A stretch of 64,000 nt of DNA. Source: Bdellovibrionota bacterium. Its GTDB lineage: Bacteria > Bdellovibrionota_C > UBA2361. The translations under genes were made by a program, and so were the position numbers. Below, piece after piece: positions 4,770 through 26,357 of the stretch. A model generated the notes under the pieces. The model was not told the DNA's origin and did no database searches. It saw nothing but the letters and a program-made list of their open reading frames with translations. How positions within the stretch are numbered: position 1 is the first letter of the stretch; the number at the start of each line of letters is the position of its first letter. Location: NCBI GenBank assembly GCA_044352465.1, contig JBILDU010000001.1, positions 84,211-148,210 on the forward strand. Direction: 5' to 3'.

Positions 4770-5510
4770 ATGCACGTTCTTTGCCTCCACGGAAATTTCG
4801 GTGCCCCGGAGGATTGGGATGCTCTCACGGCTACATTGGCGCGGGGGGTTAAAGGAGCCACGTTCGAGGCGCCCAATCTATGGGCGCTTGACCCGGCTGA
4901 GCCAATTGAAGAGCTTGCTCACCGCATCGTGACCGCAAAGGGGGCTGGAAGGCAGGTCTTCGTGATGGGGTATTCGCTTGGGGGCCGCTTGGCGCTGGAG
5001 CTTTTAGCCCGGCGGGAAACGCCGCTCGATGGAGCGATACTCTGCTCAGTCAATCCTGGGCTTAGTGAACCCGCTGTCAGACGCGATCGACTTGCGAGCG
5101 ATGCGCGCTGGGCCGATAAAGTGGCGGATCTCGCGAACCCGTGGCGAAATGTTGTTACTGAGTGGAATGGACAAGCCGTCTTCGCTGGCTCAGCTCCCCG
5201 TCCCAGTGTTTCCTTTGCCTCCGCCGAGCAAGAACGAAAGGTGCGGAGTGCTATCGCGCGAGGCTTTCGAGAGTGGTCGCTCGGTGCCTTGCCCTCTCGG
5301 TGGTCAACCCTTGAGAAAGTGCGATGTCCGGTACTTTGTCTTGCGGGTGAGCATGATACAAAGTTTCGGTTGCTCCTCGATACTATCGAACGTTTTCCCA
5401 ACCCCCGAATCGTTTGTGGTGTTGTCCCAGGGGCGGGACATCGGGTAATACTCGACAATCCCGAGGCTTGTGCCCTCCGCGCCGCGGTTTTTTTGACGCG
5501 CCATGAATAG
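4770..5510 (+). CDS. alpha/beta-hydrolase, possible MenH (SHCHC synthase)
   Basis: 246 aa. The nucleophile elbow GYSLGGR matches the MenH-type motif. A catalytic His lies near the C-terminus (GAGHRV). It sits about 6 kb from menF/menD, so the MenH assignment is an inference. Confidence 0.5.
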   Translation: MHVLCLHGNFGAPEDWDALTATLARGVKGATFEAPNLWALDPAEPIEELAHRIVTAKGAGRQVFVMGYSLGGRLALELLARRETPLDGAILCSVNPGLSEPAVRRDRLASDARWADKVADLANPWRNVVTEWNGQAVFAGSAPRPSVSFASAEQERKVRSAIARGFREWSLGALPSRWSTLEKVRCPVLCLAGEHDTKFRLLLDTIERFPNPRIVCGVVPGAGHRVILDNPEACALRAAVFLTRHE

Positions 5511-7000: not shown

Positions 7001-7022
7001 GCGCACGGTCACCGAGGGCTTC

Positions 7023-8740: not shown

Positions 8741-8775
8741 ACGTGGCTTTTACACTAGTATAGCATCATCCGATG

Positions 8776-8808
8776 TTAATTCAAATATTTGAATTAATTA
8801 TTAATTAA
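8776..8808. promoter_or_regulatory. AT-rich divergent promoter region containing a 22-bp perfect palindrome TTAATTCAAATATTTGAATTAA followed by TTATTAATTAA
   Basis: Read directly from the sequence. The region is strongly AT-rich relative to the genome. It lies between the divergent genes starting at 8740 (-) and 8926 (+). Confidence 0.5.
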
Positions 8809-8925
8809 ATTGAGAAAGACGTTGCATGAAAAAAGTATGTCACATTTTGGGCAAAAAGCCCAAAACTATGGTATGGTATCTGGAGTAGAAAGAAAAACCT
8901 AAACATGAGTAGAGGAGGAATCACT

Positions 8926-9336
8926 ATGAAGTTTTATCGAACGATTGCTGCAGCCCTAGCCGTAGCGATCTTTGGGGTGAACCCCGTCCGGGCCGCCCCG
9001 CTCATCTCGGTTTCAGGAGCGGTGTGCGATACAACGCGCGAGCGCTTATACGTAACTCCCCCGGATCCCGGCGTGGATCGGTGCACGCCGTCGGACCGTC
9101 GTTCTCGGGGGGTTAAGGTAACGGCGCGGAGCGAGAAAACGGGGCGAATCCTTGCTCAAACGAGGACGAGCAAAAACGGCGCTTTCGTGCTGAAGCTCCG
9201 CCCCGGAAGGTACGTCATCTTCGTCGAGAACGGAGGGTACTCTCTGACCGTTACACTCGGAAACAAGAGGATTCGGAACATCGACTTTATAAGGAACATC
9301 GTCTTCATCGCGGAAGATTCCGGCCGGACGTCTTGA
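8926..9336 (+). CDS. small secreted protein with a carboxypeptidase-regulatory-like domain
   Basis: Strong AGGAGG RBS before the ATG at 8926 (ORF track starts at 8905). Signal peptide MKFYRTIAAALAVAIFGVNPVRA. CarbopepD_reg-like motif VKVTARSEKTGRILA...NGAFVLKLRPGRYVIFV. Confidence 0.55.
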   Translation: MKFYRTIAAALAVAIFGVNPVRAAPLISVSGAVCDTTRERLYVTPPDPGVDRCTPSDRRSRGVKVTARSEKTGRILAQTRTSKNGAFVLKLRPGRYVIFVENGGYSLTVTLGNKRIRNIDFIRNIVFIAEDSGRTS

Positions 9337-9337
9337 T

Positions 9338-9940
9338 GTGAAGACGCCGGATAGAGGCGGGGAGAGAGAAATGACTAAAAAACGAGAGAGGCAGATGGAG
9401 ATGAAAGCCGTCGGAAACAACGTGAGGCGGGTCTTGATTGCGGCGTTCGTTATACCGCTCTTTATCGCGAGCGGAGCAAGAGCGGAGCAAAAATACCTGG
9501 TTAAGGTCGGTGTCTTTGAGGACATCAGAGTGTGCCCTTTATATCTACCCAACCCGTGCGAGGCTGCACCGGTTGGCCCGATTAAGGGGGTGCGGGTAAC
9601 GTTTCGAACGAGCACCGGAAAGCTTCAAGGTCGGGTGCGCACCGCTCGAGACGGGATCGCCAGATTCCGTCTTCCAAACGGTGAGTATGTAGCCTCGATC
9701 AATCTACCCGGATATCGGCAGAGATTCATCGTCGATAACCGTAAGCCCGAGATGGTTGTGATGTCGATCGGGAAAGCGAAGGTTAAGGACTACGGACTGA
9801 TAGGGCATCGCGGAAGAAGCTCGGTACCAATAAGCCCGGTGCCAATAAGCCCGGTGCGGGTGCAAAGTATCCCCGTTTTCGCTACCATAGATGGGTTATT
9901 GAGGCTCAATCGTGGTCGCGAAGATGGAGATTTTTATTGA
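9338..9940 (+). CDS. small secreted protein with a carboxypeptidase-regulatory-like domain
   Basis: Signal peptide ...VRRVLIAAFVIPLFIASGARA. The likely start is an internal Met near 9395-9401. Motif VRVTFRTSTGKLQGRV...DGIARFRLPNGEYV. A 15-bp tandem duplication encodes VPISPVPISPV. Confidence 0.5.
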   Translation: MKTPDRGGEREMTKKRERQMEMKAVGNNVRRVLIAAFVIPLFIASGARAEQKYLVKVGVFEDIRVCPLYLPNPCEAAPVGPIKGVRVTFRTSTGKLQGRVRTARDGIARFRLPNGEYVASINLPGYRQRFIVDNRKPEMVVMSIGKAKVKDYGLIGHRGRSSVPISPVPISPVRVQSIPVFATIDGLLRLNRGREDGDFY

Positions 9941-10044
9941 TCGGTATCGACACCCGTCGCTCTTCGTTTCGCTGCCCCCGGTGGCGGAGCGGCCGCGGCG
10001 GCTGATCGGTGGTTACGGCGCCGGACGAGCGATGACCGAAAAGA

Positions 10045-11058
10045 TCACACACGGTACCTTTTAAAAAACCGAGAAGCGATCTCCGGCTTCTGGCATAGGG
10101 CTGAAGAGAAAGAGAGTAACGCGATGCCGGAAAGACCGAGCACGAGGTTGATATCAGGCGCGGGGAAAACGGCTTGTATTATAATGACCGAGAGGACGGG
10201 GAGGAGGTAGATTATCGAGGTCACCTTTTCAATCGGAATCGCTTGGCGTCTCGCTTCGGCGACAGCTCTTGTCCACACAAAATAGCCAACGCCATCCATG
10301 ACGATGCCAAAGAGGATAGTGATCGCGAGCGAGAGCGGTGGGACCTCGTGAAGGGAGCCCAACTCCGGTAGTGAAAACGGGAGGAGGACGAGCATCCCGG
10401 AGATCGAGGAGAGCACCAGAAACCGAAATTGCTGGTCCGCGCTGATGGTGCTACTGAACGCTGAGTAGAACCCATACGCAGCACCGGCGGCGAGACCCAA
10501 CGCGACCGCGATCCACGGTAGGTCACCGAGCGAGGTCGGTGAGACCGAGAATAGAACGAGAGCAACAGCGACCGCGCCGAGAGCCATGCCGATAAGAAGA
10601 ACGGCTCGCTCAAGCCGCGTGGACGTATTCGCGGGTGGCCCATACTCCTCGCTCATCTCGGAGGGTTGGCGATCCACCGGACTACCGGTGCGCTGAGAGA
10701 AGAGGAGCGCGCTAAAGATAGCAGTAAAGAGCGGCCACGTGTAATTCAGTGCGGCGCTGAGCGCTGCGACCGGGGTATGGCGAAAGCTCCCCCCATAAAA
10801 GAGCCAGTACCACCCGTATCCGAAACTCGAGATGATTCCGATCGGGGCCAGGATCTCACGGGCTGAAACAGAGACCCAACTCCCGGTGATCAGACGCGCA
10901 CCGATCTGGAAGGTAAGAAAGGTGCAGAACGTGCTGAGAAGAAAGAGCCCAGCACCGGAGTGAAACGCCATAATCTTTCCACCGACCGCTCCAAACGCCC
11001 ACAGGAGCACCGTCGTCCAAGCGAGTGCGCGGGGGGAGGCTAGAAAAGTCGATAGCAT
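10045..11058 (-). CDS. DMT-superfamily (EamA-like) transporter
   Basis: 337 aa with about 10 predicted TM helices and two duplicated EamA-like halves. Confidence 0.5.
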   Translation of the reverse strand: MLSTFLASPRALAWTTVLLWAFGAVGGKIMAFHSGAGLFLLSTFCTFLTFQIGARLITGSWVSVSAREILAPIGIISSFGYGWYWLFYGGSFRHTPVAALSAALNYTWPLFTAIFSALLFSQRTGSPVDRQPSEMSEEYGPPANTSTRLERAVLLIGMALGAVAVALVLFSVSPTSLGDLPWIAVALGLAAGAAYGFYSAFSSTISADQQFRFLVLSSISGMLVLLPFSLPELGSLHEVPPLSLAITILFGIVMDGVGYFVWTRAVAEARRQAIPIEKVTSIIYLLPVLSVIIIQAVFPAPDINLVLGLSGIALLSFSSALCQKPEIASRFFKRYRV

Positions 11059-11340
11059 ATACCGAGCTCAGAACGAGGGTGTTCACACGTATCTCGGCCA
11101 GACCGGGATTGCAAGCGTACCTGAGAAGAGGGCAGATCCTTGGAGGTCATCATCGATAATCCACCGCTCAGATACATGCTCGCGGAGCGGTTTTTATCGG
11201 CTCCAGAGTAAGGCATGGCTGTATTTTTTTTTGAAATCGACGTATTTTTTGGGGAATCTCGGTACTCGTTCCGTAATTTTTTAGTAAGAAAAGTGAGTGC
11301 ATACGCCGAGTGCTCCTCCCCCTCACGAAGCAGCTTCAAT

Positions 11341-12417
11341 ATGAGAAAGATATTCGACGAGCGCTTCGAAGAGGGATGTGCCAATGAAGAGGCCAGTGTA
11401 CCGAGCGTTTTTCTTGGGGGACCCTCCACCGCCGCGGTGTTCGCCGGTTTTGGCGCGCTTACGGCGGTCGCTGCACCCCCACCTCAGAGCGTGGCGTTCT
11501 ACGCCCCCGACTTTCAACTCTCGAGTCCCGAGCCGTGGTTCGTGCCGGAGCGATATGAGTCTATCGTCGCCACGCCCCGTGGACCGGTCGCGCCCCTTAC
11601 CAGCGGAACCTCTTTTATCCCCCTTCAGCGTAACGTGGTCGAAGGCGAGGTTGAATCGTTGCTCGCTCTTCTTCGAAGCGGTGAGCTTAGGAAGATAGTC
11701 CCCGTTTGGTTCGAGCGGAGCGAGTGGGTTCCGCACGAATCGGAGAGGGGGGCGTTGTATCGAAACGTTCTCTATCACCGTGGTGATCAGAGCCCGTACG
11801 GCTTTTTTGGAACGAACGAGGGCATGATCGGTCTAACTCCGGAGGTCCTCTTTCACGTCGATAGCGCTGGTGTGATCGGGACGATGGCGCTTGCAGGAAC
11901 CCATCCGGTGCAGGGTAGGTTAACGGCGGCTGACCTGTTATCGGACGAAAAGGAACGGCGAGAGCATCGCCTCGTCGTCGAGTTTATTGAGGGAGCGCTC
12001 TGCGACCTCGGTGATGTCGCGATCGGAGAGACCATGGTGCGGGAGCTTCCGCGGCTACGCCATCTGTATACCCCGATAACGGTCTCTCCGCGTCGCCCAC
12101 CTCAGTTTGAGGAGCTGGTGCGGAGACTCCATCCCACCCCAGCGCTCGGTGCGGTGCCGCGTGAGAGTGGACTACGGCGACTTTTTGAACGTGAGGGGGT
12201 CATTCCGCGAGGTCGTCACGGAGCCCCCTTCGGAGTGGTGTTCCCGAGCGGTGAGATGTTGTGTGTCGTGGCGATTCGAAATCTTCAATGGGATCAAAGC
12301 GGTTCGATGATCGGCGCAGGGTGTGGTATCGTCGCGGGGTCCGACCCAGCGCGAGAGTTTAAAGAGGCTACCGCCAAGATCTCCTCTGTCCGGACGATAT
12401 TAGGGCTTAAAGGGTGA
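11341..12417 (+). CDS. menF: isochorismate synthase
   Basis: Chorismate-binding enzyme motifs (PTPALGAVP, GAGCGIVAGSDPAREFKE). The ORF opens at 11215, but the ATG at 11341 follows an AT-rich promoter-like stretch. Its stop overlaps the menD start (GTGA). Confidence 0.75.
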   Translation: MRKIFDERFEEGCANEEASVPSVFLGGPSTAAVFAGFGALTAVAAPPPQSVAFYAPDFQLSSPEPWFVPERYESIVATPRGPVAPLTSGTSFIPLQRNVVEGEVESLLALLRSGELRKIVPVWFERSEWVPHESERGALYRNVLYHRGDQSPYGFFGTNEGMIGLTPEVLFHVDSAGVIGTMALAGTHPVQGRLTAADLLSDEKERREHRLVVEFIEGALCDLGDVAIGETMVRELPRLRHLYTPITVSPRRPPQFEELVRRLHPTPALGAVPRESGLRRLFEREGVIPRGRHGAPFGVVFPSGEMLCVVAIRNLQWDQSGSMIGAGCGIVAGSDPAREFKEATAKISSVRTILGLKG

Positions 12418-13982
12418 AAAATCGGAGTCTGGCTACTGCAGCGCTGAATCTCCTCGCGAAGCTCGGGGTGATGGAGGTGTGTGTCTGTGCGGGGCGACGG
12501 GATGCCCCCCTCATCCAAATTCTCGAAAAGCAGCGGGGCTTCCGGGTACATTCGTTTTTTGAGGAGCGGAGCGCCGCTTTCTTTGCGCTTGGTTGCGCGA
12601 AGAGAACCGGGCGTCCGGGGGCGATCGTGACCACCTCGGGGACGGCGGTGGCGGAGCTTCTCCCAGCATTCATCGAGGCGCATTATAGCGGCTACTCACT
12701 CATCGCCGTGACGGCCGATCGTCCCCGGAGGCTCCGTGGCACCGGCGCGCCGCAAACGATCGATCAGGTGGGGATCTTTGGCTCGTACGTCGCGCAATGT
12801 ATCGATCGTGAGGTGGGAGAAGAACTCCCCCACGATATCCTCCTCGACCGAGGGTCGCTTCACCTTAACCTTGCATTCGATGAGCCTCTGAACGAAGGGG
12901 AGCCACCAACACTTGATTTCGACGTTGCTGCCGGAGAGTCGCCTCGCTCGCTCGAAACCACTGTGTTGACGGAAAAGCTTACCCGGTTCCTCGCAGGGGG
13001 TACCTCGCCCCTTGTCGTGGTAGGTCCGGTGAAAGCGACTGCGCGGGAAGGGGTGGAGCGGTTCGTTCGTGCGCTCAAAGCGCCGACCCTTGTGGAGGGA
13101 GCATCGGGGCTCCGGGGGGCGCCGTCTCTTCAAGATATAGAACTCGTCGGTGGAAACAACTTCCTCCAAAAACTTCTTTCCGCAGGCACGTTCGACCGAA
13201 TAGTTCGGGTTGGTGGGGTGCCGTCAGCGCGGGTATGGCGCGACCTCGACGAGAAATTTTCCTCTCTCCCGGTGCTGCACATCACCGACACCGTGTTCCC
13301 GGGGCTTGGCCGGGGAGATGTGGTGACGGTCGCGCTCGAAGGATTACCGGCACGACACATGCCGGAGTGGGGAGCGACGAGTGCGAACGTATCTGTACAT
13401 GACCGTAGGGCAGGTGCGGCGTTAGTCGAGTGTATCGAAAGCGAGCCTACCTCGGAGGTAGCGCTCGTGCGGGCGCTCTCGGAGCGGATTGCTGCGGAAG
13501 CCGCGGTGTATCTCGGTAACAGCCTACCGATTCGGGAATGGGATCTCGGTGCGGTACGGGAGAAGATGTGGCGCGCTGTCGAGGCGAATCGGGGTGCAAA
13601 CGGAATCGATGGTCAGCTCTCGACCTTTTTCGGGTGGAGCCTCGAAGCGACGGAGCGTTGGTGTATCCTCGGCGACCTGACAACTCTATATGATCTCAGT
13701 GCGCCGTCGTGTGCGCCCGAGAGCGGTAAGATCCGGATCGTCATCGTCAATAACGGGGGGGGCCAGATCTTTCGGCGAATGTTTTCTGAGAAGCTCTTTA
13801 GAAACGAACACTCCGTTTCGTTTGAAGGGTGGGCCTCGATGTGGGGCTTTGCATACCTCCGGGTTGATGGGGCTCCGGTCCCCGCAGATCTCCCCGATCG
13901 CGTTGTCATCGAAATTCGCCCCGACCAAGCGGCGAGCGATCGGATGTGGGCGCGATACGATTCGCTCTCGATGACTCGCTAG
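12414..13982 (+). CDS. menD: SEPHCHC synthase (ThDP-dependent)
   Basis: 522 aa with N-terminal ThDP-pyrimidine-binding region (GRPGAIVTTSGTAVAELLPAFIEA) and overall MenD architecture. GTG start. Confidence 0.8.
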   Translation: MKNRSLATAALNLLAKLGVMEVCVCAGRRDAPLIQILEKQRGFRVHSFFEERSAAFFALGCAKRTGRPGAIVTTSGTAVAELLPAFIEAHYSGYSLIAVTADRPRRLRGTGAPQTIDQVGIFGSYVAQCIDREVGEELPHDILLDRGSLHLNLAFDEPLNEGEPPTLDFDVAAGESPRSLETTVLTEKLTRFLAGGTSPLVVVGPVKATAREGVERFVRALKAPTLVEGASGLRGAPSLQDIELVGGNNFLQKLLSAGTFDRIVRVGGVPSARVWRDLDEKFSSLPVLHITDTVFPGLGRGDVVTVALEGLPARHMPEWGATSANVSVHDRRAGAALVECIESEPTSEVALVRALSERIAAEAAVYLGNSLPIREWDLGAVREKMWRAVEANRGANGIDGQLSTFFGWSLEATERWCILGDLTTLYDLSAPSCAPESGKIRIVIVNNGGGQIFRRMFSEKLFRNEHSVSFEGWASMWGFAYLRVDGAPVPADLPDRVVIEIRPDQAASDRMWARYDSLSMTR

Positions 13983-14002
13983 ACCGATGATTCCATCCTT
14001 TT

Positions 14003-14253
14003 TGAGGGCCGGATTCTATCTAGCCGAAGCGCCGCAGGTGGTTCAATCGATCTGGAGGGCCGGATTCTATCCGGCCGAGTAGCGCCATTGGTGATTCGAG
14101 CGCGGCTCGACAGAGTCGAGCCCTCCACACGGTTGCGGTGATTCGATCATATTGGAGGGCCGGACTCTGTCCGGCCGAGTAGCGCCACTGGTGATTCGAG
14201 CGCGGCTCGACGGAGTCGAGCCCTCCACAGGCCGCCTGGGGTGATTTGATCAC
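14003..14253 (+). repeat. structured ~100-bp tandem repeat (2.5 copies), REP/MITE-like
   Basis: Unit TGGAGGGCCGGATTCTATCCGGCCGAGTAGCGCCATTGGTGATTCGAGCGCGGCTCGACAGAGTCGAGCCCTCCACA. Each unit has two internal hairpins (GCCGGA...TCCGGC and GGCTCGAC...GTCGAGCC) flanked by GGAGGG/CCCTCC. Full copies at 14053-14152 and 14153-14253, plus a partial copy at 14003-14052. Confidence 0.85.
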
Positions 14254-14326
14254 GGCTGAACTGAATCTCGCTCCCCAAACAATGACGTTGCCGGTCGCGT
14301 GATAATCGAGTACTCCGGTAGTTACT

Positions 14327-15376
14327 ATGGAGCAGCACAGATCGCCTAGCGCACCGCCGAAGCTCTCTCCTGGGGATAAGGTCGCCATACTTTCCCCCTC
14401 TTTTTGCGCTCCGGCGGTGTGGCCCCATGTTCACGAGCTCGGACTAAAGAGGCTCCGTGAACGTTTCAGCCTTGAGCCGGTTGAGTATCCGACTACACGA
14501 AAATTCGGAGCCGCCCCCGCCGAGCGTGCAGCGGATCTCGTTGCGGCGTTTGAGTCCCCCGAGATTAAGGCGGTTTTTGCCACGATCGGCGGAGACGACC
14601 AGGTCGTCTGGATAAAGGATCTCCCCGCGGAGCCTTTTCGTCGAAATCCGAAGCCGTTCTTCGGCTACAGCGATAACACCCATTTCATGAACTTCTTGTG
14701 GCTAAACGGCGTGCCCTCGTTTTACGGTGGCGCGATCTTCACCGAGTTCGCGGCGTTCGGTGGCATGGACGACTTTACCGTAGAGTATCTGCGCCACGCC
14801 CTCTTTGGGGGTGGCGCGGTGGCGCTCAAGAGCAGCGCGACCTGCAACGATATCGATCGAGACTGGAGCGACCAAAGCCTTATCGAGGTAAAGCCTGAGT
14901 ACGAACCGAACTCGGGGTGGCTCTGGGACGGAGACGGCATCGCCGAGGGAACCACCTGGGGTGGCTGTCTTGAGTCGGTGGACGAGCTCTTACGCCACGG
15001 AACCGCGATTCCAAGCCTTACCGACTTTGAAGAGATCATCTTGCTCCTTGAGACATCGGAGGAGCTCCCCTCAGCACCGTATGTGAATCGAGTGATGAGA
15101 GCGCTTGGGGAGCGAGGGATCCTCGGTCGTATACGGGGTCTTCTCGTCGGCCGACCGAAAGGATGGAGCTTCGATCAACCGTTATCGGCTCCGGCGAAAG
15201 CCGCGTACCGAAAGACACAACATGAGGTATTTGTGCGTGGCGTTCGTTCCTACAACGCCGCGGCACCGATAGTTCAGAACCTCGACTTCGGGCACACAGC
15301 GCCGCAGATCTGTATTCCTTTTGGCGGCCGGTGCGTGATCGACGGCTCTTTACGAGAGATAGAAGTCCAATTTTAG
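14327..15376 (+). CDS. LD-carboxypeptidase (peptidase S66, LdcA/MccF-like)
   Basis: 349 aa. Catalytic Ser motif FFGYSDNTHF. C-terminal His region and overall S66 layout. Confidence 0.7.
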   Translation: MEQHRSPSAPPKLSPGDKVAILSPSFCAPAVWPHVHELGLKRLRERFSLEPVEYPTTRKFGAAPAERAADLVAAFESPEIKAVFATIGGDDQVVWIKDLPAEPFRRNPKPFFGYSDNTHFMNFLWLNGVPSFYGGAIFTEFAAFGGMDDFTVEYLRHALFGGGAVALKSSATCNDIDRDWSDQSLIEVKPEYEPNSGWLWDGDGIAEGTTWGGCLESVDELLRHGTAIPSLTDFEEIILLLETSEELPSAPYVNRVMRALGERGILGRIRGLLVGRPKGWSFDQPLSAPAKAAYRKTQHEVFVRGVRSYNAAAPIVQNLDFGHTAPQICIPFGGRCVIDGSLREIEVQF

Positions 15377-15499
15377 GATCCCGATCTCAAATTTGTCGTA
15401 TCGACTCTCAGCGAACAGCCACTGGCCCCGCTCGCTTGGGGCGATTACTCTGCCATAAAATAAGAATTGATGTATCGAATAATCAGTGCATTAGACCGT

Positions 15500-15871
15500 T
15501 TAATCAGCGGACACAGCTTTTGCATTTTTGAATGCCTGCTCACATCGTACGGTACATCTGAGAAAAATCGCTTCGAAATATGATCCTTCCTCAATCAGGC
15601 AATCCCTTAACTGAGCGCACCAGTATCCACACTGAACGCAGCTCAGGATGTCTTTCTGCTTTTCGCAGAGCGCGACCGCACCTTCCGCATTCGCCCTTGC
15701 GAGTGCACATTGGTCGCTTCCCCTAGAAGCGAAATCGGGATCTGCCTGCTCCAAAATTACTGTGAGCTCTGCGAGCTCGGAATCAAGCTGCTCAATCGGA
15801 GATGCGAGCACGCTTCCAGGGATACTTGAGACGAGGCAGAGGATTGTCGTAAAAATGTAAGCAAAACGCAT
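15500..15871 (-). CDS. small secreted cysteine-rich protein
   Basis: Signal peptide MRFAYIFTTILCLVSSIPGSVLA. The mature ~100 aa has 7 Cys, including CVQCGYWC. The local GC is clearly lower than in the surroundings. Confidence 0.5.
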   Translation of the reverse strand: MRFAYIFTTILCLVSSIPGSVLASPIEQLDSELAELTVILEQADPDFASRGSDQCALARANAEGAVALCEKQKDILSCVQCGYWCAQLRDCLIEEGSYFEAIFLRCTVRCEQAFKNAKAVSAD

Positions 15872-16660
15872 ATATAAACCCCACATGGTACCGTTAGCCG
15901 AAGCTGATTAAGACCTTAGCAACTGGTCAGCTTTCAGAATAAAGTTATGCGAGGCAAGACCGCTGCTGTGCGCTAATGGTGCGCGATTTTGCTTAGTGGT
16001 TTCCGCTTGGTCTGGGTCAGCTACGTCAGAGCACCTCTTTTCCCGCGTGGCTGGGCTAGTGTGGATGTATTACGAATCGGCTTATTGGAGGATGTACCAT
16101 CTCATCGGTACCGTGCAGCAGGCCCATTTCGATTACCCAGAATAAGTGATGAGCAAAAGCGGCAGCCTTATGAGATGCTATGGCGTTCCTCGCCATCGAG
16201 CTTTCATTAAAACTATTTGTAGGGAGGCGGGACAATTTTGTCCCAACCACGCGGTCGTCGGAGTCTGGTCGACCGCGAACAGATGTAACGCCTCCGCGGG
16301 GGCGTGGACGACCGGGAGCGGGGAGCGCTAAGCAGTTACAGGGGCAAATAATTGCGCGCGGGCGAAGACGTAGCGCGGAGCGAACCGAACCGTATTCAGG
16401 GAACCTCCCTTATTGACTCAGCGTTGTTCGCTTTGCTCCTATTCCCCAACGGTAAGGAGTTTACCGTTGAGGAGTCACGCCACGTGGGGCGAAGGAGTAC
16501 GCGTCGAGCTGATACTCAAGGTCAGATGTGAATTGGACAGGGGGCTCGGGGAAGGTCCCTCGGCCGATTCGATACGCGAGCCGCTTTGCTTTTGCAGTTG
16601 CCCGGCTCTCCCTGGCCAGGCTAATGATTCTTTCAGAAGATGAAGAAGTTTCCGAGAGAA

Positions 16661-18748
16661 TCACCAGAGCCCCTCCAACGGAGCTCCAGTCAAGCGATTC
16701 ACGACGCGAGGGCGGATCTTGAGCTTTGACTCAATCGAGCTTAGGAGGTGCCCAACAGGTGTCTGTGCCCAAGAGTCAACGGGACGTTGAATCACCGCGA
16801 CGACGGGGGTCACTGCATCAAATCGAGCCGCCTCGGCGTGACGATAGAGCTGGGTGCCCACGATGTTGTCTCCGAGAGAATGATGCTCCTTGTAGTTTTT
16901 ACTGACGAGGGTGTCGAGGGTACGTTTCACCTCGATTCCGAGGGTCTCCCCGGCCTTACTGCGAGCGATAATATCGTACTCAAAGCCATGCCTAATCGGT
17001 GAGCTGAGGCCGATAATCGTGTATTCACTCTTACTCAGGGCGACAGCCGTCGCCGCTTCGATGGGGAAGCCGGAGAAATGTTGAGTATCGTCTCCTTTCG
17101 CCCGTGCGCGGAGAACGACGAGGCTGTTGTCGAGAAGCTTTTCGATCCCTTTCACGTTGAGGCGGTCAAGATGTACGAGGTTTTCCAGGAAAAGAATCAC
17201 CTTCTCATCGCCAGCTGTATCGTATTGACGTGGTGCAACAAGAGCGATCTCACGTAGCTTTGCGATCGGATACCGTTCCGAACTAAGTTCGTTGAGGGCA
17301 TGCGCAAGGCGGCGAACGTGCCCCTCAATATCCGGGCATCGAGCCTGCCGGGCGAATGTGTGAAGAATCGATTGGATCTCGGGAGCGCGTATACCGTCTG
17401 TGCCTTCGAGCCCCTCCATTCCGTGGCGCACAGCCGCGCGTATTCCCTGATTCGGCTCACGGGTGAGCTCCATCGAGATCTGGAGAGAACGGCCGAGTAT
17501 CTTCTTGTATCCGGGCTCGGACTGTGGAATCGGTACCAAGGCTCCTTCGGCTGCACGGCGAATGACCTCGGCACCTTCCGCGGTGGTAACGAGGAATTGC
17601 TCGATGGGGACATCCCAGCGTGCGAGGGTGGCGAGACGTTTTAGGTGAGAGATTTTTTCGGGTCCACGTTTCAGTGGTTCCGCAAGCCGGTGTTCGATCC
17701 ATGTGGATGGATACATGAGCAATGTAAGCTCGACAACCGTCTCGTGAAGTTCGTTCATGTCACTAGCCGTGACGGTACATTTTTCGGGGATGTTGCACGC
17801 AAGATTGCGAGTTACCGTTGAGAGCCGTGGAAGGAGCTCCCTCCCGAGCTGGAGCTCCTGAGCGGCGACGGATGTGAGATATCCTCGCTCGGTGAGCTTC
17901 TCTAGCCACGACTCGGTTGTGGTAAGTCCGTATGCACGGAGGCGATCCATTTGTCCTAGGATAGCGGTGATTGAAGCGAAGGACGCTTCGGTAGCTTCGC
18001 TGAGATGTCGACACCCTTGCCGGAGTTCATTCAGGGTCTTGAGGTGGTCTCGCCCCTCGGGCCCAACAAAGTCCTGAACGAGTGGTACGATGAGTCGGTC
18101 AGCGCTGTTTTTCTCGACGTCCTCGAGGAGCTCAGAGAACTGCAGGTGTTCCTCAAGTGTCGTAAGCTCGAGACGTATAAATTGCTCGCACATACCGAGG
18201 AGCTCGGGGCCGGAGTCGCGAATGGGCTGAACGATTTGCTCACGGAGCGCAGTGACTTCAGAGCGAACCTCGGCCGCGGCAGGTCCAGATACCGCCTGAA
18301 ACGGTTGAGCCGCGATCAACTCGGGTTGTGGCGACTCGGGGCTCGATTCACGCGGGGTGAGGTTTTCATTTGAGAGGGGATTCGAGGGGAAGGCATCGAA
18401 GATCAGTTGGGTGATAACCCGGTATTCCGCGGTTCGGTCACTCGTACGAAAGGTATCCGGTAGTATCCCAGGATTTCGATTCGCGCGACGCTCGAAGATA
18501 TGAAGCTTGTGTTCTACCTCGGCGCGGAATGTAGCGCTGCCAAGCTCCGTATCGCCTCTCGCAGCCTCAAAAGCGGCGTAGACCGGGTCCGATCTCAGGA
18601 ATCGCTCGGTTTGTGCAAGGCCAACGAGAGGTGTCCGGCCCCGGAGTTCCTGATTCGGCGCCCTGGCGAGACGTTCAACGGCGTCGTACGCCGCTTCGCG
18701 CTGAGCCGGCGAAAGGCGTAGATCGATCGCTGTCTCGCTTTTGATCAT
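16661..18748 (-). CDS. large hypothetical protein with C-terminal PD-(D/E)xK nuclease-like domain
   Basis: 695 aa, mostly helical. The C-terminus carries E (PIEAATAVAL), D (FEYDIIA) and ExK (GIEVKR) with canonical restriction-endonuclease-fold spacing. No N-terminal motif was recognised. Confidence 0.55.
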   Translation of the reverse strand: MIKSETAIDLRLSPAQREAAYDAVERLARAPNQELRGRTPLVGLAQTERFLRSDPVYAAFEAARGDTELGSATFRAEVEHKLHIFERRANRNPGILPDTFRTSDRTAEYRVITQLIFDAFPSNPLSNENLTPRESSPESPQPELIAAQPFQAVSGPAAAEVRSEVTALREQIVQPIRDSGPELLGMCEQFIRLELTTLEEHLQFSELLEDVEKNSADRLIVPLVQDFVGPEGRDHLKTLNELRQGCRHLSEATEASFASITAILGQMDRLRAYGLTTTESWLEKLTERGYLTSVAAQELQLGRELLPRLSTVTRNLACNIPEKCTVTASDMNELHETVVELTLLMYPSTWIEHRLAEPLKRGPEKISHLKRLATLARWDVPIEQFLVTTAEGAEVIRRAAEGALVPIPQSEPGYKKILGRSLQISMELTREPNQGIRAAVRHGMEGLEGTDGIRAPEIQSILHTFARQARCPDIEGHVRRLAHALNELSSERYPIAKLREIALVAPRQYDTAGDEKVILFLENLVHLDRLNVKGIEKLLDNSLVVLRARAKGDDTQHFSGFPIEAATAVALSKSEYTIIGLSSPIRHGFEYDIIARSKAGETLGIEVKRTLDTLVSKNYKEHHSLGDNIVGTQLYRHAEAARFDAVTPVVAVIQRPVDSWAQTPVGHLLSSIESKLKIRPRVVNRLTGAPLEGLW

Positions 18749-19239
18749 TGCCCGACTGAGCCTGTTTGTAACCTCTTATGTTATGGAGTGTTTCAGCCCG
18801 TAGGTGCGCAGGAGCCGGAGATATGGGGTAAGGTGTTGGAACGCCTTGGCTCATTCGGAATCGTGCCATCGCACGGTGAGAGAAATCGCAACTCTCATGC
18901 GAAGTGCTCTCCGGGGAAAAGCTCTCCTGAAGAAGCACGGTCGCTTTTTGATGCATCTCGTCGCTGATGAGACCGGGGAAGGTGGAGTCGGGAGCCGTGG
19001 TTACAGACCGCTGGGGCGTAGCTTCGCTCAAGACCGGAGAGAGTTAAAAATCTTTAAAAGCTCATAGTGCGGAGTGATAGATCGGAGAAAAAGGAGGGCG
19101 AACGAGAGTGTGCCGCAAAGAGCGGAGAGGTAGAGGGATCGGTGGATCGGCGTAGCGGGAGCAAAGGCGAATGGAGGCGGAGCCTCGTTCCTAGGATGGT
19201 GAGGTCGCGCTCGTAAACCTTTCGTCGTGACCCGTCACG

Positions 19240-19926
19240 ATGATAGCCTCGAGGGGCATGTGGACGATCTACCGACACACAAAAGGGATGCATTACCTCT
19301 CGCTCGGGCAAGCAACTCACTCGGAGACGCTTGAGCCTCTTGAGGTGTACCGGGCGCTCTACGACAACGAACTCGCTTCGATGTGGGTGCGCCCGCACGG
19401 GATGTTTCACGGCCCCGCTGATGCAGGGGGGAAGCGTTTTGAGGTAGTGGGGCGGGTGCGGGTGGTGTATCCGGAAGATGAGGCGACCGTGCTCGGTTTC
19501 GGGCACGATGCGTGGGGTCATGGGCTCTCCGTGACCGAATTTGTATCCACTTACTCGACGAATCTGAACCATCTCCGCGGAACGCGGTATCTTTTTGAGC
19601 TTCCCTCCGGAGAGATCGTCGGGAACCTGAATACTATCAGGTTTTGCCGGTCCCTGGTGGGGCTCGCGTCGATGTCGGTGGCCCCGTCTGTAAGGAGGCG
19701 GGGGATAGCATCCCTTCTCCTTCGCGCGGTGATAGAGCTTTTTCGAGCCGAGGATCCAGCGACCCGATTTATACTCTATTCGGAGGTGGGGTTAACGCTG
19801 TACGAGCGAATCGGCTTTTCGGCGCTTCCCACGGAGTTACAGTTTCATCCCCCCGCGGTAGCGATGGTGACGGGGGAAGGGGGCCTTTCTGACGATGAAG
19901 CTGAGTTCTTATGGACGTATTTCTAG
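19240..19926 (+). CDS. DUF1653 domain fused to GNAT acetyltransferase
   Basis: N-terminal YRHTKG...YRALYDN...MWVRPHGMF matches the DUF1653 signature. C-terminal GNAT motif (RRRGIASLLL...LYERIGF). Confidence 0.6.
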   Translation: MIASRGMWTIYRHTKGMHYLSLGQATHSETLEPLEVYRALYDNELASMWVRPHGMFHGPADAGGKRFEVVGRVRVVYPEDEATVLGFGHDAWGHGLSVTEFVSTYSTNLNHLRGTRYLFELPSGEIVGNLNTIRFCRSLVGLASMSVAPSVRRRGIASLLLRAVIELFRAEDPATRFILYSEVGLTLYERIGFSALPTELQFHPPAVAMVTGEGGLSDDEAEFLWTYF

Positions 19927-20370
19927 GCCGGCCTTTACGGGCTGGTTGTGAGTCTGAGTCGGTGTCTGATGGCCTGAGCACTTTCCAAGCTTCAACCCAC
20001 GTGAGTTTTGGGAACTTGAATTCGGTCTGGTATGACACAAAGGGTGAGACGGCGAAGTACTCTCACTCGCCGATTCGCCTTCAGTTGAGTCGGATTAAGA
20101 GCTGTTATCTAAACGAGTAGCGCAAAGTACCCAACATCGTGTACTCGAGAGCCGACCTGGTGAAGCTCGCGGGGGCGTACGGGCATCCCGGGGCCGATCG
20201 GGATCAGACCGTAGTTTGTGGGGCTGATGGGTCAATGGCCTCTCCGTGCTTTGGCAATAAAGTCTATATCTATCAGTGGGTTGGGGCTGGTGGAGCTTTC
20301 GTCTCGGCCTAGCAGGTGAGTTCTAGTAGCGTTTTTGGTTAGAATCAGTCCCCCGGAGGAAGAGGTAGGT

Positions 20371-21183
20371 ATGTGGGAAACGATCAAAAAGTACGAAGAT
20401 ATCAAGTTCGAGAAGACGAGCGACGGAATCGCGAAGATTACGATTAACCGTCCCGAGCGGCGAAATGCTTTTCGCCCTCAGACCGTGCTTGAGATGCAAG
20501 ATGCATTTAATCTCGCGCGTGACGACGATCAGATCGGTGTCGTCATTTTAACCGGGGAGGGGCCCGAGGCTTTTTGCTCCGGTGGCGATCAAAAGATCCG
20601 TGGTCACGCGGGCTATATCGATTCTCAAGGGGTACCTCGGCTGAACGTGCTCGATCTGCAAAAGCAGATTCGTGGGCTCCCGAAGCCCGTCGTGGCGATG
20701 GTCGCGGGGTACGCGATAGGCGGTGGCCATGTTCTCCACGTGGTGTGCGATCTCACGATCGCTGCGGATAATGCCAAGTTCGGGCAGACCGGACCGAAGG
20801 TCGGCTCGTTCGATGGTGGGCTTGGCAGCTCCTACCTCGCGCGGATCGTCGGTCAAAAGAAAGCCCGGGAGATCTGGTTTTTGTGTCGGCAGTACGATGC
20901 GCAGCAAGCCCGTGAGATGGGGCTGGTGAACTGGGTGGTGCCGCTTGCTGAGCTCGAGACGGAGACCTTAAAAGTATGCCGGGAGATGCTTGAGCTTTCG
21001 CCTTTGGCGCTCCGGTGTCTGAAGGCGTCGCTTAACGCCGATTGCGACGGGCAGATGGGGCTTCTCGACCTCGCCGGCAACGCGACCCTTCTCTACTACA
21101 TGACTGAGGAAGCCAAGGAGGGAAAGCAGGCGTTCGTTGAGAAGCGGAAGCCTAACTTTAAAAAATTTCCGCGGCTGCCGTAA
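20371..21183 (+). CDS. menB: 1,4-dihydroxy-2-naphthoyl-CoA synthase
   Basis: Crotonase fold with MenB-specific motifs ([26 protein letters not shown]). GGAGG RBS before the ATG at 20371; the ORF track starts at a TTG at 20335. Confidence 0.88.
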
Positions 21184-21186
21184 CCG

Positions 21187-22089
21187 ATGTCCCTGGCCCC
21201 TTGGATAGCGGCTGCGCGGCCGAAGACCCTCACTGCGGCGCTGGTGCCGGTTGTGGCGGGTTCGGCGCTGGGAGCACGGTTGTCGTTGGCAACTGAGTTT
21301 GCGTGGTTCGTCTCGCTGGCTGCGCTCATCAGCGCAACCGCGATACAGGTTGGTACGAATCTCTTCAACGACGTCCTCGATTTCGAGAAAGGTGCCGACA
21401 CCGCGGCGCGAGTGGGGCCGACGCGGATTACCCAATCGGGGGGTGCCTCTCCTGAGCGGGTCTATCGGGTAGCGATCGGGACGTTCCTTGTTGCGATCCT
21501 CTTCGGTGCTTACTTGGTCTGGCACGGCGGTGCGCCGATTCTTATCATCGGGCTCCTTTCTCTTCTTTTTGGATATGCCTACACGGGCGGACCCTACCCG
21601 TTAGCGTATCGCGGTCTCGGTGATCTTTTCGTGCTGATATTTTTTGGGATTGTGGCGGTCACGGGGATGGTGTTTCTCCACACCGGGTTCTGGCCGTTTG
21701 CGGGATTCGTGGCAGGGCTTCAGATCGGCTCACTCGCCGTCGTCCTCATCGCGATTAATAATCTGCGGGACCGTGAAACCGATAGTCGTGTTGATAAGCG
21801 AACGCTTGCGGTTATCTTGGGCGAGCGCGGGGCAAAGATCGAGATAGTGGCGCTCTTAATCGCTCCATTTTTGTTAGGGCTTTATTGGGTTGAGACCCCT
21901 TTTAGCTGGGCCGCGGTGCTGCCACTTGTCCTCTTGCCGTTCGCAGTACGGGTAGCGCGTGAGATCTGGGCGATGAAGCCGAGCGGAGAGCTCAATCGGT
22001 ATCTCGGTCGGTGCGCGTTTGTTCACTTGGGGTTCGGTGCTCTGCTGACGATCGGCTTTCTATTGGGGGCGGTGCCTCTTGGGAACTGA
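21187..22089 (+). CDS. menA: 1,4-dihydroxy-2-naphthoate polyprenyltransferase
   Basis: UbiA-family membrane protein with NDVLDFEKGADT and NNLRDRETDSRVDKRTLAV motifs. Confidence 0.85.
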   Translation: MSLAPWIAAARPKTLTAALVPVVAGSALGARLSLATEFAWFVSLAALISATAIQVGTNLFNDVLDFEKGADTAARVGPTRITQSGGASPERVYRVAIGTFLVAILFGAYLVWHGGAPILIIGLLSLLFGYAYTGGPYPLAYRGLGDLFVLIFFGIVAVTGMVFLHTGFWPFAGFVAGLQIGSLAVVLIAINNLRDRETDSRVDKRTLAVILGERGAKIEIVALLIAPFLLGLYWVETPFSWAAVLPLVLLPFAVRVAREIWAMKPSGELNRYLGRCAFVHLGFGALLTIGFLLGAVPLGN

Positions 22090-23218
22090 CTTCGGGGCTG
22101 TGGAGTTTCGGCTCGGGTGGGGCGATTTCAAGCTCCTTCTCGATCCCCGTTTTGGTGCGGAGAGGCGGGGTGATTTTGAAGCGTTGCTCCGCCCGGTTGC
22201 CCCACCAGGCGGTGGTATCTGGGTAGCCTCATCGGGGACAACTCGAAAAGAGGGCACGGGGTATCGGTTCATTGCACTTACCGAGGCTGCGCTGGTGACC
22301 TCTGCTCAGGCGGTAAATGCCCATCTTGCAGCGACAAAAGAAGATATCTTTGTGTCGTGCCTGCCCGATTTTCATGTTGGTGGTCTCGGGCTCCAGGTGC
22401 GGGCCGCTCTCCTCGGGGCACGATTTGTTAGGAGTGCCGGCAACGCTCGTCCGTGGAGCGCTCTTGAATTTGCGAGAGATGTTGAAGCCAATCGGGGAAC
22501 GATCCTCTCGCTGGTACCGACTCAGGTAGTTGACCTGGTAAGGGCGGGTATCGCGGCGCCGAGCTGTGTGCGTGTCGTGGTCGTTGGCGGCGGCGCGCTG
22601 TCCTTTCGTGAGTACCAGGAGGGGCGGGCGCTCGGGTGGCCGCTGCTACCGAGCTACGGATGCACTGAGTGTAGCTCGCAGATCGCGACCGCATCACTGG
22701 AGAGCCTTCAAACTCATCGGGGTAGCACGCTGCCGCCGCTCAAGCTTCTCTCCCATATCGAGGCGCGAGAGGAGGAGGGTGCTCTGCTCATTCGAAGCAG
22801 GGCTTTGTTCTCGTGTGCGGCGAGCCTGATGGACGATTCGGTCACCGTGGAGCCACTCGCGCCAGGTGCCTGGTTTCAGACCTCTGATCGCGTCGCCATC
22901 GAGGGAGACACGATAGCACCGCTCGGGCGTGTCGATGATCTTATCAAGATCGGCGGGGAGGGGGTGAATCTGCACGAGCTTTCCCTCCTCGTTCGTGATA
23001 TCCGAGAGGTGATATCGATGCAGGGCGATGTTCTCTTAAGGGCGATACCAGACGAACGGTTTGGTAACGTCCTGTCGCTGCGCGTGACTAATGCCGCCCT
23101 TGGAGAGGTCATTCGCGAGAGATTTAACGAACAGGTTCTCCCTTTTGCGCAGATACGCTCGGTAGAGCTCGTAGAAGTGATTGAGCGAACGGCCCTGGGA
23201 AAGCTGAAACGAGGATAA
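22079..23218 (+). CDS. menE: o-succinylbenzoate-CoA ligase (short adenylate-forming enzyme)
   Basis: AMP-binding motifs SSGTTRKEG, SYGCTE and IKIGGEGVNLHELS. Positioned after menB-menA. Confidence 0.65.
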   Translation: MGTDFGAVEFRLGWGDFKLLLDPRFGAERRGDFEALLRPVAPPGGGIWVASSGTTRKEGTGYRFIALTEAALVTSAQAVNAHLAATKEDIFVSCLPDFHVGGLGLQVRAALLGARFVRSAGNARPWSALEFARDVEANRGTILSLVPTQVVDLVRAGIAAPSCVRVVVVGGGALSFREYQEGRALGWPLLPSYGCTECSSQIATASLESLQTHRGSTLPPLKLLSHIEAREEEGALLIRSRALFSCAASLMDDSVTVEPLAPGAWFQTSDRVAIEGDTIAPLGRVDDLIKIGGEGVNLHELSLLVRDIREVISMQGDVLLRAIPDERFGNVLSLRVTNAALGEVIRERFNEQVLPFAQIRSVELVEVIERTALGKLKRG

Positions 23219-25980: not shown

Positions 25981-26177
25981 CACGATAGGAGGTAAAAGCG
26001 AATAACGTCAAAAGCGTTGTTTGTGGGCTTGCATCGGTCGAGCACTGTATTTGTACAGTGCCCCCGCACTGCTGCAACTACTGTTCTCGATCGATGTGAG
26101 CTCCCTCCTTTTCTCTTTTTCCCCGCTATTTTGCTGAACGTCCGAAACTTCCGTTCAAATGCGAGCTCGTTTCCCCT

Positions 26178-26330
26178 GTGGCGCTCGTCGGCCGGACAGA
26201 GTCCGGCCCTCCAATGCTTTTGAATCACCGCAATCGTGTGGAGGGCTCGACTCTGTCGAGCCGCGCTTGAATCACCTGTGGTGCTCGTCGGCTGGATAGA
26301 GTCCGGCCCGCTAATGATTGCTCGCATCAT
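26178..26330 (-). repeat. inverted-orientation copy (~1.5 units) of the 100-bp structured repeat seen at 14003-14253
   Basis: The reverse complement of 26178-26330 aligns with the repeat unit at 14053-14253. Examples: GGCCGGACAGAGTCCGGCCCTCCAAT and GGAGGGCTCGACTCTGTCGAGCCGCGCTTGAATCACC. Confidence 0.8.
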
Positions 26331-26357
26331 CGGTTGTGTCCGCCGTCCGTGTTTCGA

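Follow-up and report, generated by a model that had tools for sequence, protein, structure and literature searches.

Genes and features around the menD-menB interval

The window analyzed here is a 64-kb stretch of DNA from a lineage that has been little sampled and is closest, among named groups, to Bdellovibrionota. Its menaquinone (men) genes form two groups on the same strand: menD ends at position 13982 and menB starts at 20371, and approximately 6.4 kb of unrelated genes lie between them. The relevant features are as follows (positions in the window, strand, identity).

4770..5510, plus strand: menH-like alpha/beta hydrolase (Abhydrolase_6, E 1e-15)
11215..12417, plus strand: menF, isochorismate synthase (Chorismate_bind, E 3.8e-40; best NCBIfam matches to isochorismate synthase models)
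12414..13982, plus strand: menD, SEPHCHC synthase, last gene of the putative upstream men unit (TIGR00173, 286.8 bits versus a cutoff of 244.2)
13985..14250, plus strand: REP/BIME-like array, starting 3 nt past the menD stop and absent from this site in the closest relative, L001
14327..15376, plus strand: MccF-like S66 serine peptidase, 349 aa (Peptidase_S66 and S66C domains)
15500..15886, minus strand: cys128, secreted Cys-rich ORF of 128 aa, whose N-terminus resembles a signal peptide and whose mature part contains 8 Cys (also called by JGI)
15887..16660, no strand: 775-bp gap without a supported gene, holding only short overlapping ORFs and partly of low GC
16661..18748, minus strand: p695, 695 aa, whose extended N-terminal and middle portion is helical and includes a conserved NQELRGR (residues 32-38), followed by a predicted nuclease domain at the C-terminus
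16664..17086, minus strand: predicted PD-(D/E)xK nuclease-fold domain of p695 (approximately residues 555-695)
19240..19926, plus strand: DUF1653-GNAT fusion, 228 aa (DUF1653 E 1.5e-13; Acetyltransf_7, _1 and _10)
19965..20192, plus strand: pseudogene remnant covering the last 76 codons of what was a GT2/methyltransferase-like gene and interrupted by an in-frame stop (20121-20123)
20315..20370, plus strand: menB promoter-like block and ribosome-binding site (-10-like TAGAAT at 20340-20345; GGAGGAAGAGG before the ATG)
20371..23218, plus strand: menB-menA-menE, the putative downstream men unit, syntenic in L001
20371-21183, plus strand: menB (NF005637, 496 bits)
21187-22089, plus strand: menA (equivalog model NF004751, 281.6 bits, above cutoff)
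22079-23218, plus strand: menE (menE model is the best match)
26172..26335, minus strand: second array of this repeat family, immediately following the dnaE stop and in dnaE orientation
26358-29672, minus strand: dnaE, the gene upstream of the second array

A preliminary description of this DNA had listed a hairpin repeat of 100-nt period, an S66 peptidase, a secreted Cys-rich ORF of low GC, a protein of 695 aa and a fusion of DUF1653 with GNAT in the interval, and our coordinates agree with it. It was also right that these genes lie outside menaquinone biosynthesis, and the genes that flank them are bona fide men genes. Its approximately 400 bp of non-coding DNA before menB must be revised, because the gene remnant at 19965-20192 lies there.

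Among the men genes, NCBIfam equivalog models exceed their cutoffs for menD, menB and menA, and men models are the best matches but fall below cutoff for menF and menE. The JGI call puts the menF start at 11341. The start that is conserved in menB is the proposed ATG (20371) and not the TTG at 20335 that opens the longest ORF. In a three-way alignment of the window with two relatives (L001 and L013), positions 20315-20370 form the sole conserved block of the menB spacer. The menH-like hydrolase is 41% identical to an Abhydrolase_6 gene that abuts menF in L010, a member of a more divergent clade, and 33% identical to the MenH of the distant outgroup L008. Unrelated genes intervene between menH and menF both in the window, where they span 5.7 kb, and in L001. 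With this hydrolase present at 4770-5510, we rejected the notion that the DUF1653-GNAT protein replaces MenH.

The S66 protein carries PF02016 (E 1.6e-22) and PF17676 (E 2.6e-19) domains and, at the level of motifs, the entire catalytic triad (GYS115D, E242TSEE and FGH323T). In E. coli MccF, we take E243 and H311 to be the triad residues that accompany the serine. The best PDB matches are MccF-like or ‘MccC family’ proteins from B. anthracis (E 4.5e-43). MccF-like entries range from E 4.5e-43 to 1e-12 and LdcA-type entries from about 3e-15 to 7e-7, and the LdcA equivalog model gives 48 bits, far under its 378-bit cutoff. The protein probably acts in the cytoplasm as a serine carboxypeptidase on an amide bond, and by analogy with MccF-like enzymes its substrate may be an aminoacyl-nucleotide or a peptidyl compound.

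The neighboring cys128 is the sole compositional outlier of the block (GC 0.494; GC3 z = -3.6; codon score z = -3.9). Searches of Pfam, NCBIfam, PADLOC and PHROG gave no match for it, and no homology was found between it and a 208-aa Cys-rich ORF of L001 (E 2.3) or between that ORF and the window. For the adjacent gap at 15887-16660, there is no Rfam match and nothing similar in any relative compared.

The DUF1653-GNAT protein is 80% identical to the product of L001 positions 11763-12446, which occupies the same position before menB. The remnant that follows it was looked for in L001 and L013 and not detected; it is 59% identical (E 1e-22) to residues 332-407 of a 411-aa protein encoded at 16638-17873 of L010. 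This homologue lies 5 kb downstream of menD, an arrangement hinting that a larger intervening region may predate the clade that unites the window and L001 (clade A).

The hairpin repeat and the nuclease-like protein

The array downstream of menD is built from two alternating hairpin units of approximately 50 nt, each beginning GGTGATTC, which yield a period of 100 nt that runs for about 2.5 periods. It comprises two complete copies of 93 nt, offset by 100 nt and with 89% identity, and then a partial unit. Both unit types contain an 8-bp GC-rich stem, and the pair closing the stem is compensatory between copies (T-A at 14066/14070 versus C-G at 14166/14170). The RNA fold z-score of the array is -5.1, and 100 shuffles of the sequence produced no unit matches. 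TRF reported no tandem repeat in 12-22 kb, and the array was recovered by a separate repeat search. No Rfam family matched at E<=1 in 13.5-20.6 kb or 26.0-26.5 kb, and a promoter/terminator scan found sites no more numerous than in shuffles, none of them within the array.

Both arrays in the 64-kb window are 3'-intergenic, and L001 keeps one repeat unit at the syntenic dnaE site. With a second array located after dnaE, the repeat appears to be a dispersed, REP/BIME-like element of 3' regions and not the edge of an insert. One contig of a different sample stops precisely at the repeat array. The array is probably co-transcribed with menD, and with dnaE at the other site, and would act as a 3' stabilizing structure. 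A mobile or invertible 12-kb segment bounded by the inverted arrays at 14.0 and 26.2 kb was rejected because L001 is collinear throughout and has the unit only at its dnaE site.

The full length of p695 is backed by a homologue (P0002; 37% identity, 97% coverage), and the JGI annotation comprises only its C-terminal 429 aa. The family, whose members are approximately 690 aa long, accounts for 27 clusters among 1.84 billion representative proteins and is confined to related lineages (Bdellovibrionales and ‘Deltaproteobacteria’ MAGs). Searches of Pfam, NCBIfam and PDB sequences with p695 gave no match above threshold, and other members gave sub-threshold matches only. A PDB search with a p695 profile returned nothing at E<=10, and a homologue search with a 17-member alignment returned just two proteins that were already known. 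Neither tblastn against plasmids and phages nor PHROG produced a match.

At the level of prediction, the C-terminus has the alpha-beta-beta-beta-alpha-beta fold of restriction-endonuclease-like proteins, and the residues of the catalytic signature E / D / (D/E)xK, namely E564, D592, E606 and K608, are invariant in 17 family members, together with K617 and Q633. The protein probably acts as a metal-dependent nuclease, and its N-terminal two thirds, which are helical, would serve for targeting or regulation. Orthologues of p695 are 26-34% identical, versus 60-96% for neighboring genes. In five other genomes, p695 homologues stand alone among housekeeping genes, never beside S66, GNAT, Cys-rich or defence genes.

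We also entertained a more speculative role, which we think rather unlikely: p695 might represent an uncharacterized, lineage-restricted, single-gene nuclease family engaged in genetic conflict (anti-phage, anti-MGE, or discrimination between self and non-self DNA in predatory Bdellovibrionota-like bacteria), and the REP-bounded menD-menB spacer might be a landing pad that captured it, and with it a detoxifying peptidase of MccF type and a Cys-rich secreted peptide. What suggested this idea is that p695 orthologues diverge in conserved neighborhoods yet retain every catalytic residue.

Layout in relatives and history of the interval

MenD scans of genome contigs and of metagenome contigs returned two loci each. 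The layouts were mapped on a MenD tree, with the polarity set by one close relative (L001) and one 4.3-kb contig of the sister clade (L013). In L001 (clade A; MenD 75% and MenB 95% identical to those of the window), which is syntenic over approximately 25 kb, menD is followed by the 208-aa Cys-rich ORF, DUF1653-GNAT and menB. In L013 (clade B; MenD 69%, MenB 90%), menF-menD is followed by a 380-bp spacer and then menB, and the distant outgroup L008 (MenD 47%) has menF-menD-menH-menB-menA. Clade C (MenD 62-64%), to which L010 belongs, has menH-menF-menD and then a gene in convergent orientation, and menB does not occur within 10 kb.

The preliminary description interpreted the interval as an insertion of 6.3 kb, to be judged by the spacing of menD and menB in relatives. 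With menD and menB separated by 380 bp in L013 and only by menH in L008, the interval does appear to be a derived gain. In addition, the closest relative does not share the layout, as L001 lacks S66, cys128 and p695 despite its extensive synteny. The part of the claim that fails is that of one insert, given that DUF1653-GNAT is common to the window and L001. Homology with L001 stops at 13966 and resumes at approximately 19216. Because DUF1653-GNAT precedes menB in L001 too, only 13967-19215 is specific to the window, and the content between the same anchors is 5.25 kb in the window versus a non-homologous 1.09 kb in L001. A tblastx comparison of the two menD-to-DUF1653 intervals revealed no common remnants, and no trace of S66, cys128 or p695 was found in the L001, L010 and L013 loci.

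From these sequence comparisons, we consider it reasonably probable that menD and menB belong to separate men transcription units and that the spacer between these units has been filled stepwise by unrelated chromosomal genes. The gain appears stepwise because L001 has DUF1653-GNAT but not S66, cys128 and p695. The block would lie between transcription units because menB keeps its conserved promoter-like block, a division that we propose from sequence conservation. An original position inside a core operon, as first envisaged, is therefore doubtful, and clade C menD genes have no menB nearby. In a first step, the ancestor of the window and L001 would have gained DUF1653-GNAT just upstream of menB, where a GT2/methyltransferase-like gene, now the 76-codon remnant, would once have resided as well. 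In a second step, the segment from menD to DUF1653-GNAT would have turned over, leaving in the window the hairpin array as a 3' tail of menD, the MccF-like S66 gene, cys128 and p695, and in L001 the other Cys-rich secreted ORF. The four genes of the window would then be unrelated passengers in their own orientations, and not one functional module.

The same data bear on the possibility that a multi-gene menD-menB block was present in the ancestor of clades A to C, and that L013 and L001 deleted all or part of it. The identity between the remnant and its L010 counterpart is near that of MenD (62-64%), and so fits an orthologous leftover. Moreover, the composition of S66 and p695 is fully host-like and the p695 family is restricted to related lineages. 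However, the intervening genes of clade C (163, 553, 491 and 297 aa) leave no trace in the window, S66, cys128 and p695 are equally traceless in L001, L010 and L013, and the sister clade as well as a distant outgroup has menD next to menB. Loss from an ancestral block is consequently an unlikely account of the interval.

We give still less credence to the proposal that S66, cys128, p695 and DUF1653-GNAT arrived together as a single horizontally acquired island encoding an immunity/toxin or anti-phage module, a possibility to which the preliminary description leaned. Microcin C immunity activities include both MccF-type S66 enzymes and GNAT acetyltransferases (PMC8323819), the p695 nuclease signature is intact, and p695 orthologues evolve far faster than their neighbors, as conflict genes often do. 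The absence of S66, cys128 and p695 from L001, the mixed strands and the deviant GC3 of cys128 would also agree with an island. But the presence of DUF1653-GNAT in L001 without the remaining genes means that the arrival was not a single event.

Tests for mobility likewise speak against an island. No integrase or transposase domain was detected in the four main ORFs (Pfam, NCBIfam and PHROG; all four longer than approximately 120 aa), and no tRNA between 9 and 27 kb. Flanking repeats were limited to chance-level repeats of 14-29 nt, none of them at both borders, and the hairpin array occurs at a single border. The expected signature of recently transferred cargo did not materialize either: tetranucleotide z ranges from -1.66 to +1.05 across 13-20.5 kb (|z| at most approximately 1.7), and for S66, p695 and DUF1653-GNAT neither GC3 nor the codon score departs by more than 1.2 sd, leaving cys128 as the exception. 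The GC dip noted earlier is present but mild (0.49-0.51 at 15.2-16.2 kb versus a window mean of 0.567). Native composition may also be compatible with an old transfer or with a donor of similar composition. Among the features of genomic islands, the block thus has absence from the same site in close relatives, and lacks a mobility gene, an anchor or repeats, and deviant composition. A defence or competition role finds little encouragement, since PADLOC-DB 2.0 run on the four proteins gave only noise-level matches (CARF3 at 17.4 bits and ZorD at 9.4 bits, both on p695), p695 lacks relatives among PHROGs, plasmids and phages, and its homologues elsewhere reside among housekeeping genes.

For the men pathway, stepwise filling of a spacer would have little consequence: the genes are intact and menB has its own promoter-like region, and thus the interval would reflect ordinary gene turnover between transcription units. 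The value of the locus lies instead in a rare, fast-evolving family that combines a helical body with a predicted PD-(D/E)xK nuclease and is mis-called by automatic annotation, and in a REP/BIME-like hairpin repeat family from a barely sampled Bdellovibrionota-related lineage. A more general lesson is that accessory genes amid core genes do not amount to a defence island without evidence from mobility, composition or context.

Comparison with known systems

The S66 protein shares with MccF and MccF-like enzymes, which act in microcin C immunity and include a stand-alone B. anthracis homologue, the two-domain architecture and Ser/Glu/His motifs at matching positions, S118 being the catalytic serine of E. 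coli MccF (PMC8323819). It differs in having no mcc-like biosynthetic genes near it in the window. The p695 domain matches structures of PD-(D/E)xK nucleases of the NucS/EndoMS, XisH and AF1548 type at 10-15% sequence identity. Unlike these, it is fused to approximately 550 helical residues without detectable relatives, and no Pfam model reaches threshold.

Repetitive extragenic palindromes (REP/BIME) of Enterobacteria and Pseudomonas are often located in 3' UTRs. The repeat described here resembles them in its short, GC-rich hairpin units, which are arrayed, strictly intergenic and placed right after stop codons, in an orientation that follows the upstream gene and with dispersal to at least two loci. 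In contrast, its units are approximately 50 nt long and direct rather than alternately inverted, two types alternate, and no Rfam family covers them.

Variable inter-operon regions that act as hotspots of gene turnover likewise have conserved flanks, non-homologous content in sister genomes and decayed gene fragments. The window spacer differs from them in having no integrase, mobility gene or tRNA anchor and in its native composition, and with only two genomes in the clade it cannot be shown to be a hotspot in the statistical sense. Finally, relative to the canonical menF-menD-menH-menB-(menC)-menE/menA cluster, whose contiguous form is found in the distant outgroup L008, the window has the same enzymes, order and strand, but unrelated genes occupy two gaps, one of 5.7 kb between menF and menH, which here lies upstream of it, and one of 6.4 kb between menD and menB.

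Gene order between menD and menB in the window and its relatives

The DNA between menD and menB had been read, in a preliminary description, as an insertion of about 6.3 kb (13983-20370) that splits the menaquinone cluster. That observation is confirmed and its interpretation is partly supported. ORF listing and Pfam/NCBIfam scans recovered every gene that had been named. The window belongs to the JGI metagenome contig Ga0453694_0000001 (619,777 bp), and its positions 6661-27950 are identical to locus L006.

Genes of the menD-menB interval and its flanks
4770-5510 (+): menH-like alpha/beta hydrolase
11215-12417: menF
12414-13982: menD (TIGR00173, above cutoff)
14327-15376 (+): S66 peptidase
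15500-15886 (-): cys128, a 128-aa ORF with a signal-peptide-like N-terminus followed by eight cysteines
16661-18748 (-): p695, a 695-aa ORF, no Pfam/NCBIfam family match
19240-19926 (+): DUF1653-GNAT fusion
20371 (ATG, the conserved menB start) to 23218: menB, menA, menE
26358-29672 (-): dnaE

Elsewhere in the window, a 507-aa ORF (2930-4453, -) joins an APH-like phosphotransferase region to an AAA_33/Zeta-toxin-like P-loop kinase domain.

Close homologues of MenD are few (62-75% identity), and the next tier, with Bdellovibrio and Gemmatimonadota proteins among its members, reaches at most 49%. The MenD tree comprises three clades and an outgroup.

Gene order around menD by position in the MenD tree
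Clade A (the window and its closest relative, L001): in L001, menD, 208-aa secreted ORF, DUF1653-GNAT (80% identical), menB
Clade B, sister of A (contig L013, L020, protein P0006): in L013, menF-menD, 380 bp non-coding, menB (MenB 90% identical)
Clade C, outside A and B (L010-12, P0010, L019): menH-menF-menD, then a convergent 155-176-aa gene
Outgroup, further out than clade C (L008-type sequences): in L008, contiguous menF-menD-menH-menB-menA

In L010-12 the convergent gene is followed by unrelated genes, and menB does not appear within 10 kb; for P0010 and L019 the contigs stop at this gene 3' of menD. An insertion had been expected to reveal itself through relatives with menD-menB or menD-menH-menB, and both arrangements occur, in L013 and L008 respectively. 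The window and L001 are collinear over about 25 kb, but their homology ends at 13966 and picks up again at about 19216, and between these breakpoints 5.25 kb of window sequence and 1.09 kb of L001 sequence share nothing, even by tblastx. The L001 segment holds the 208-aa ORF (11050-11676, +), which has a signal-like N-terminus, 15 cysteines and no family match, and which is not homologous to cys128. The same slot is thus filled by two unrelated Cys-rich secreted ORFs. A further indel separates these syntenic genomes (window 8886-11812 versus L001 6655-8463): a 337-aa ORF (10045-11058, -; no Pfam match) lacks a counterpart in L001, and paired CarboxypepD_reg ORFs differ in length.

The most parsimonious order of events starts from an ancestor of clades A and B in which menD and menB were neighbours. 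The ancestor of clade A would then have gained DUF1653-GNAT, and the segment upstream of this gene would later have turned over independently. The insertion reading therefore holds to the extent that the interval was gained secondarily, from a state with menD next to menB, and fails in that it is not one insert.

An alternative is that part of the intervening content predates clade A, and its chief argument comes from the roughly 400 bp before menB that had been called non-coding. This DNA contains a pseudogene remnant (19965-20192, +) encoding, with one in-frame stop (20121-20123), the C-terminal 76 residues of a GT2/methyltransferase-like protein of 411 aa. The clade C locus L010 has an intact homologue (16638-17873; 59% identity, E 1e-22) 5 kb downstream of its menD. 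The remnant is direct evidence that this site underwent rearrangement or deletion in the past; ancestral adjacency followed by gain and turnover is nevertheless the most economical account of the gene orders.

Repeat arrays and transcription units

The menD stop directly precedes an array (13985-14250) of about 2.5 periods of a 100-nt repeat, whose two full copies are 89% identical. Each period consists of two ~50-nt units, both starting GGTGATTC and each with its own 8-bp GC-rich hairpin, GGCCGGAy-TCT-rTCCGGCC in one type and GGCTCGAC-rGA-GTCGAGCC in the other; one GGAGGG/CCCTCC pair brackets the two units together. One stem-closing pair shows a compensatory difference between copies (T-A versus C-G), and the RNA fold of the array is 5 sd below shuffles. 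TRF did not detect the array, no Rfam family matches it, and it holds no terminator-like T-run.

A second array of both hairpin units (26172-26335, -) lies immediately 3' of the dnaE stop and, like the first, sits behind a stop codon with the same orientation as the preceding gene. L001 carries a single unit at the syntenic dnaE site (about 18666-18704) and none at the menD site. Moreover, an identical 4-kb contig from another JGI sample (3300034122), equivalent to window 14248-18269, terminates exactly at the array edge, suggesting that the repeat breaks assemblies and is multi-copy in the genome. For these reasons we interpret the array as a dispersed 3'-end element of REP/BIME-like type and not as a border of the insert.

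The description of the block as lodged inside a core operon is probably overstated as well. In a comparison of the window with L001 and L013, sequence conservation upstream of menB is confined to the final ~55 nt, a block that comprises a -10-like TAGAAT/TACAAT (window 20340-20345) and a purine-rich RBS and that persists even in the layout with menD next to menB. The clade C layout indicates that menD can end a unit. In addition, 5.7 kb of unrelated genes (5511-11214; asd, CarboxypepD_reg proteins, DUF6502 and the 337-aa membrane ORF) lie between the menH-like hydrolase and menF, and the two are likewise separated in L001, whereas menH adjoins menF in clade C relatives. The men gene set of clade A is therefore interrupted twice, at menH/menF and at menD/menB, and the latter interval is probably a spacer between transcription units.

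Composition, mobility and defence

We found no sign that the block is mobile or was recently acquired by horizontal transfer. The reported GC dip is real (0.49-0.51 at 15.2-16.2 kb versus a window mean of 0.567), but the foreign origin drawn from it is not borne out: cys128, a short ORF, is the sole deviant gene in GC3 (z = -3.6), while S66, p695 and DUF1653-GNAT score within 1.2 sd in GC3 and codon usage relative to the window's 36 long ORFs. Across 13-20.5 kb, z-scores for tetranucleotide distance to the window lie between -1.66 and +1.05. There is no tRNA within 9-27 kb, no repeat delimiting the block, and no integrase or transposase domain in the four main ORFs by Pfam/NCBIfam.

Evidence for the suggested defence or competition module is likewise lacking. 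PADLOC gave no meaningful match, and the sole PHROGs matches were to an S66-like family that carries no annotation and to a generic acetyltransferase. Among five p695 homologue loci, none adjoins S66, GNAT, Cys-rich, defence or mobile-element genes, and no plasmid or phage relatives of p695 were found.

The p695 family and the S66 peptidase

A word-indexed search of 5.8 billion proteins returned one p695 homologue, P0002 (37% identity, 97% coverage), and JGI's shortened 429-aa call. JGI annotates only these C-terminal residues and covers the N-terminal part with two small + strand genes, the spurious ORFs at 18005-18373 and 18500-18721. An exhaustive profile search of 1.84 billion representatives yielded 27 clusters, about a dozen of them full-length (665-704 aa). 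Homologues back the entire 695-aa ORF. Those family members that carry a name are from Bdellovibrionales and 'Deltaproteobacteria' MAGs.

In a 17-member alignment, the N-terminus carries a conserved NQELRGR motif, and the invariant residues G534, G560, E564, A565, D592, E606, K608, K617 and Q633 form a PD-(D/E)xK signature. The AF2 model (built from 2 sequences; mean pLDDT 62.8) consists of helices to about residue 550 and ends in an alpha-beta-beta-beta-alpha-beta core. Its top PDB match by Foldseek is EndoMS/NucS (probability 1.0, but E 0.12, with none of the matches reaching E 0.001), and other family members give sub-threshold Pfam matches to NOV_C, DUF4143, UPF0102 and PDDEXK_5. Structure comparisons agree on the modeled C-terminal fold, and the original nuclease-motif label is thus supported at the level of predicted fold.

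P0002 and two further homologues (P0124, P0125) occupy the identical slot of one conserved neighbourhood in a 43% GC lineage (purD, CHASE2 cyclase, M48, SH3_3, p695-like gene, DUF2817, H+-PPase, gidB), and two more lie among other housekeeping genes.

p695-like orthologues in the purD...gidB neighbourhood
L003: 10001-12067
L014: 8001-10097
L016: 6001-8052

These orthologues share just 26-34% identity, whereas flanking genes are mostly 60-96% identical (lowest 42%, a 101-aa ORF), and their catalytic residues are invariant nonetheless. By this comparison the p695-like gene is the fastest-evolving of its neighbourhood. Such a pattern would fit either a conflict-related role or in-situ replacement, and for this reason a defence-type reading retains a modest probability.

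The S66 protein retains the Ser115, Glu242 and His323 motifs. Its nearest solved structures are B. anthracis MccF-like/'MccC family' proteins (E 4.5e-43) and MccF itself; LdcA-type enzymes match at only 4e-7 to 3e-15, and its score against the LdcA equivalog model is far below cutoff. There are no mcc-like genes near S66. Stand-alone MccF homologues are numerous, and that of B. anthracis hydrolyses peptidyl- and aminoacyl-adenylates (PMC8323819). Taken as a whole, the menD-menB interval exemplifies a familiar form of genome plasticity. Worth remembering from it are the rare p695 family of fast-evolving predicted nucleases, the family of REP/BIME-like repeats and the gene remnant.
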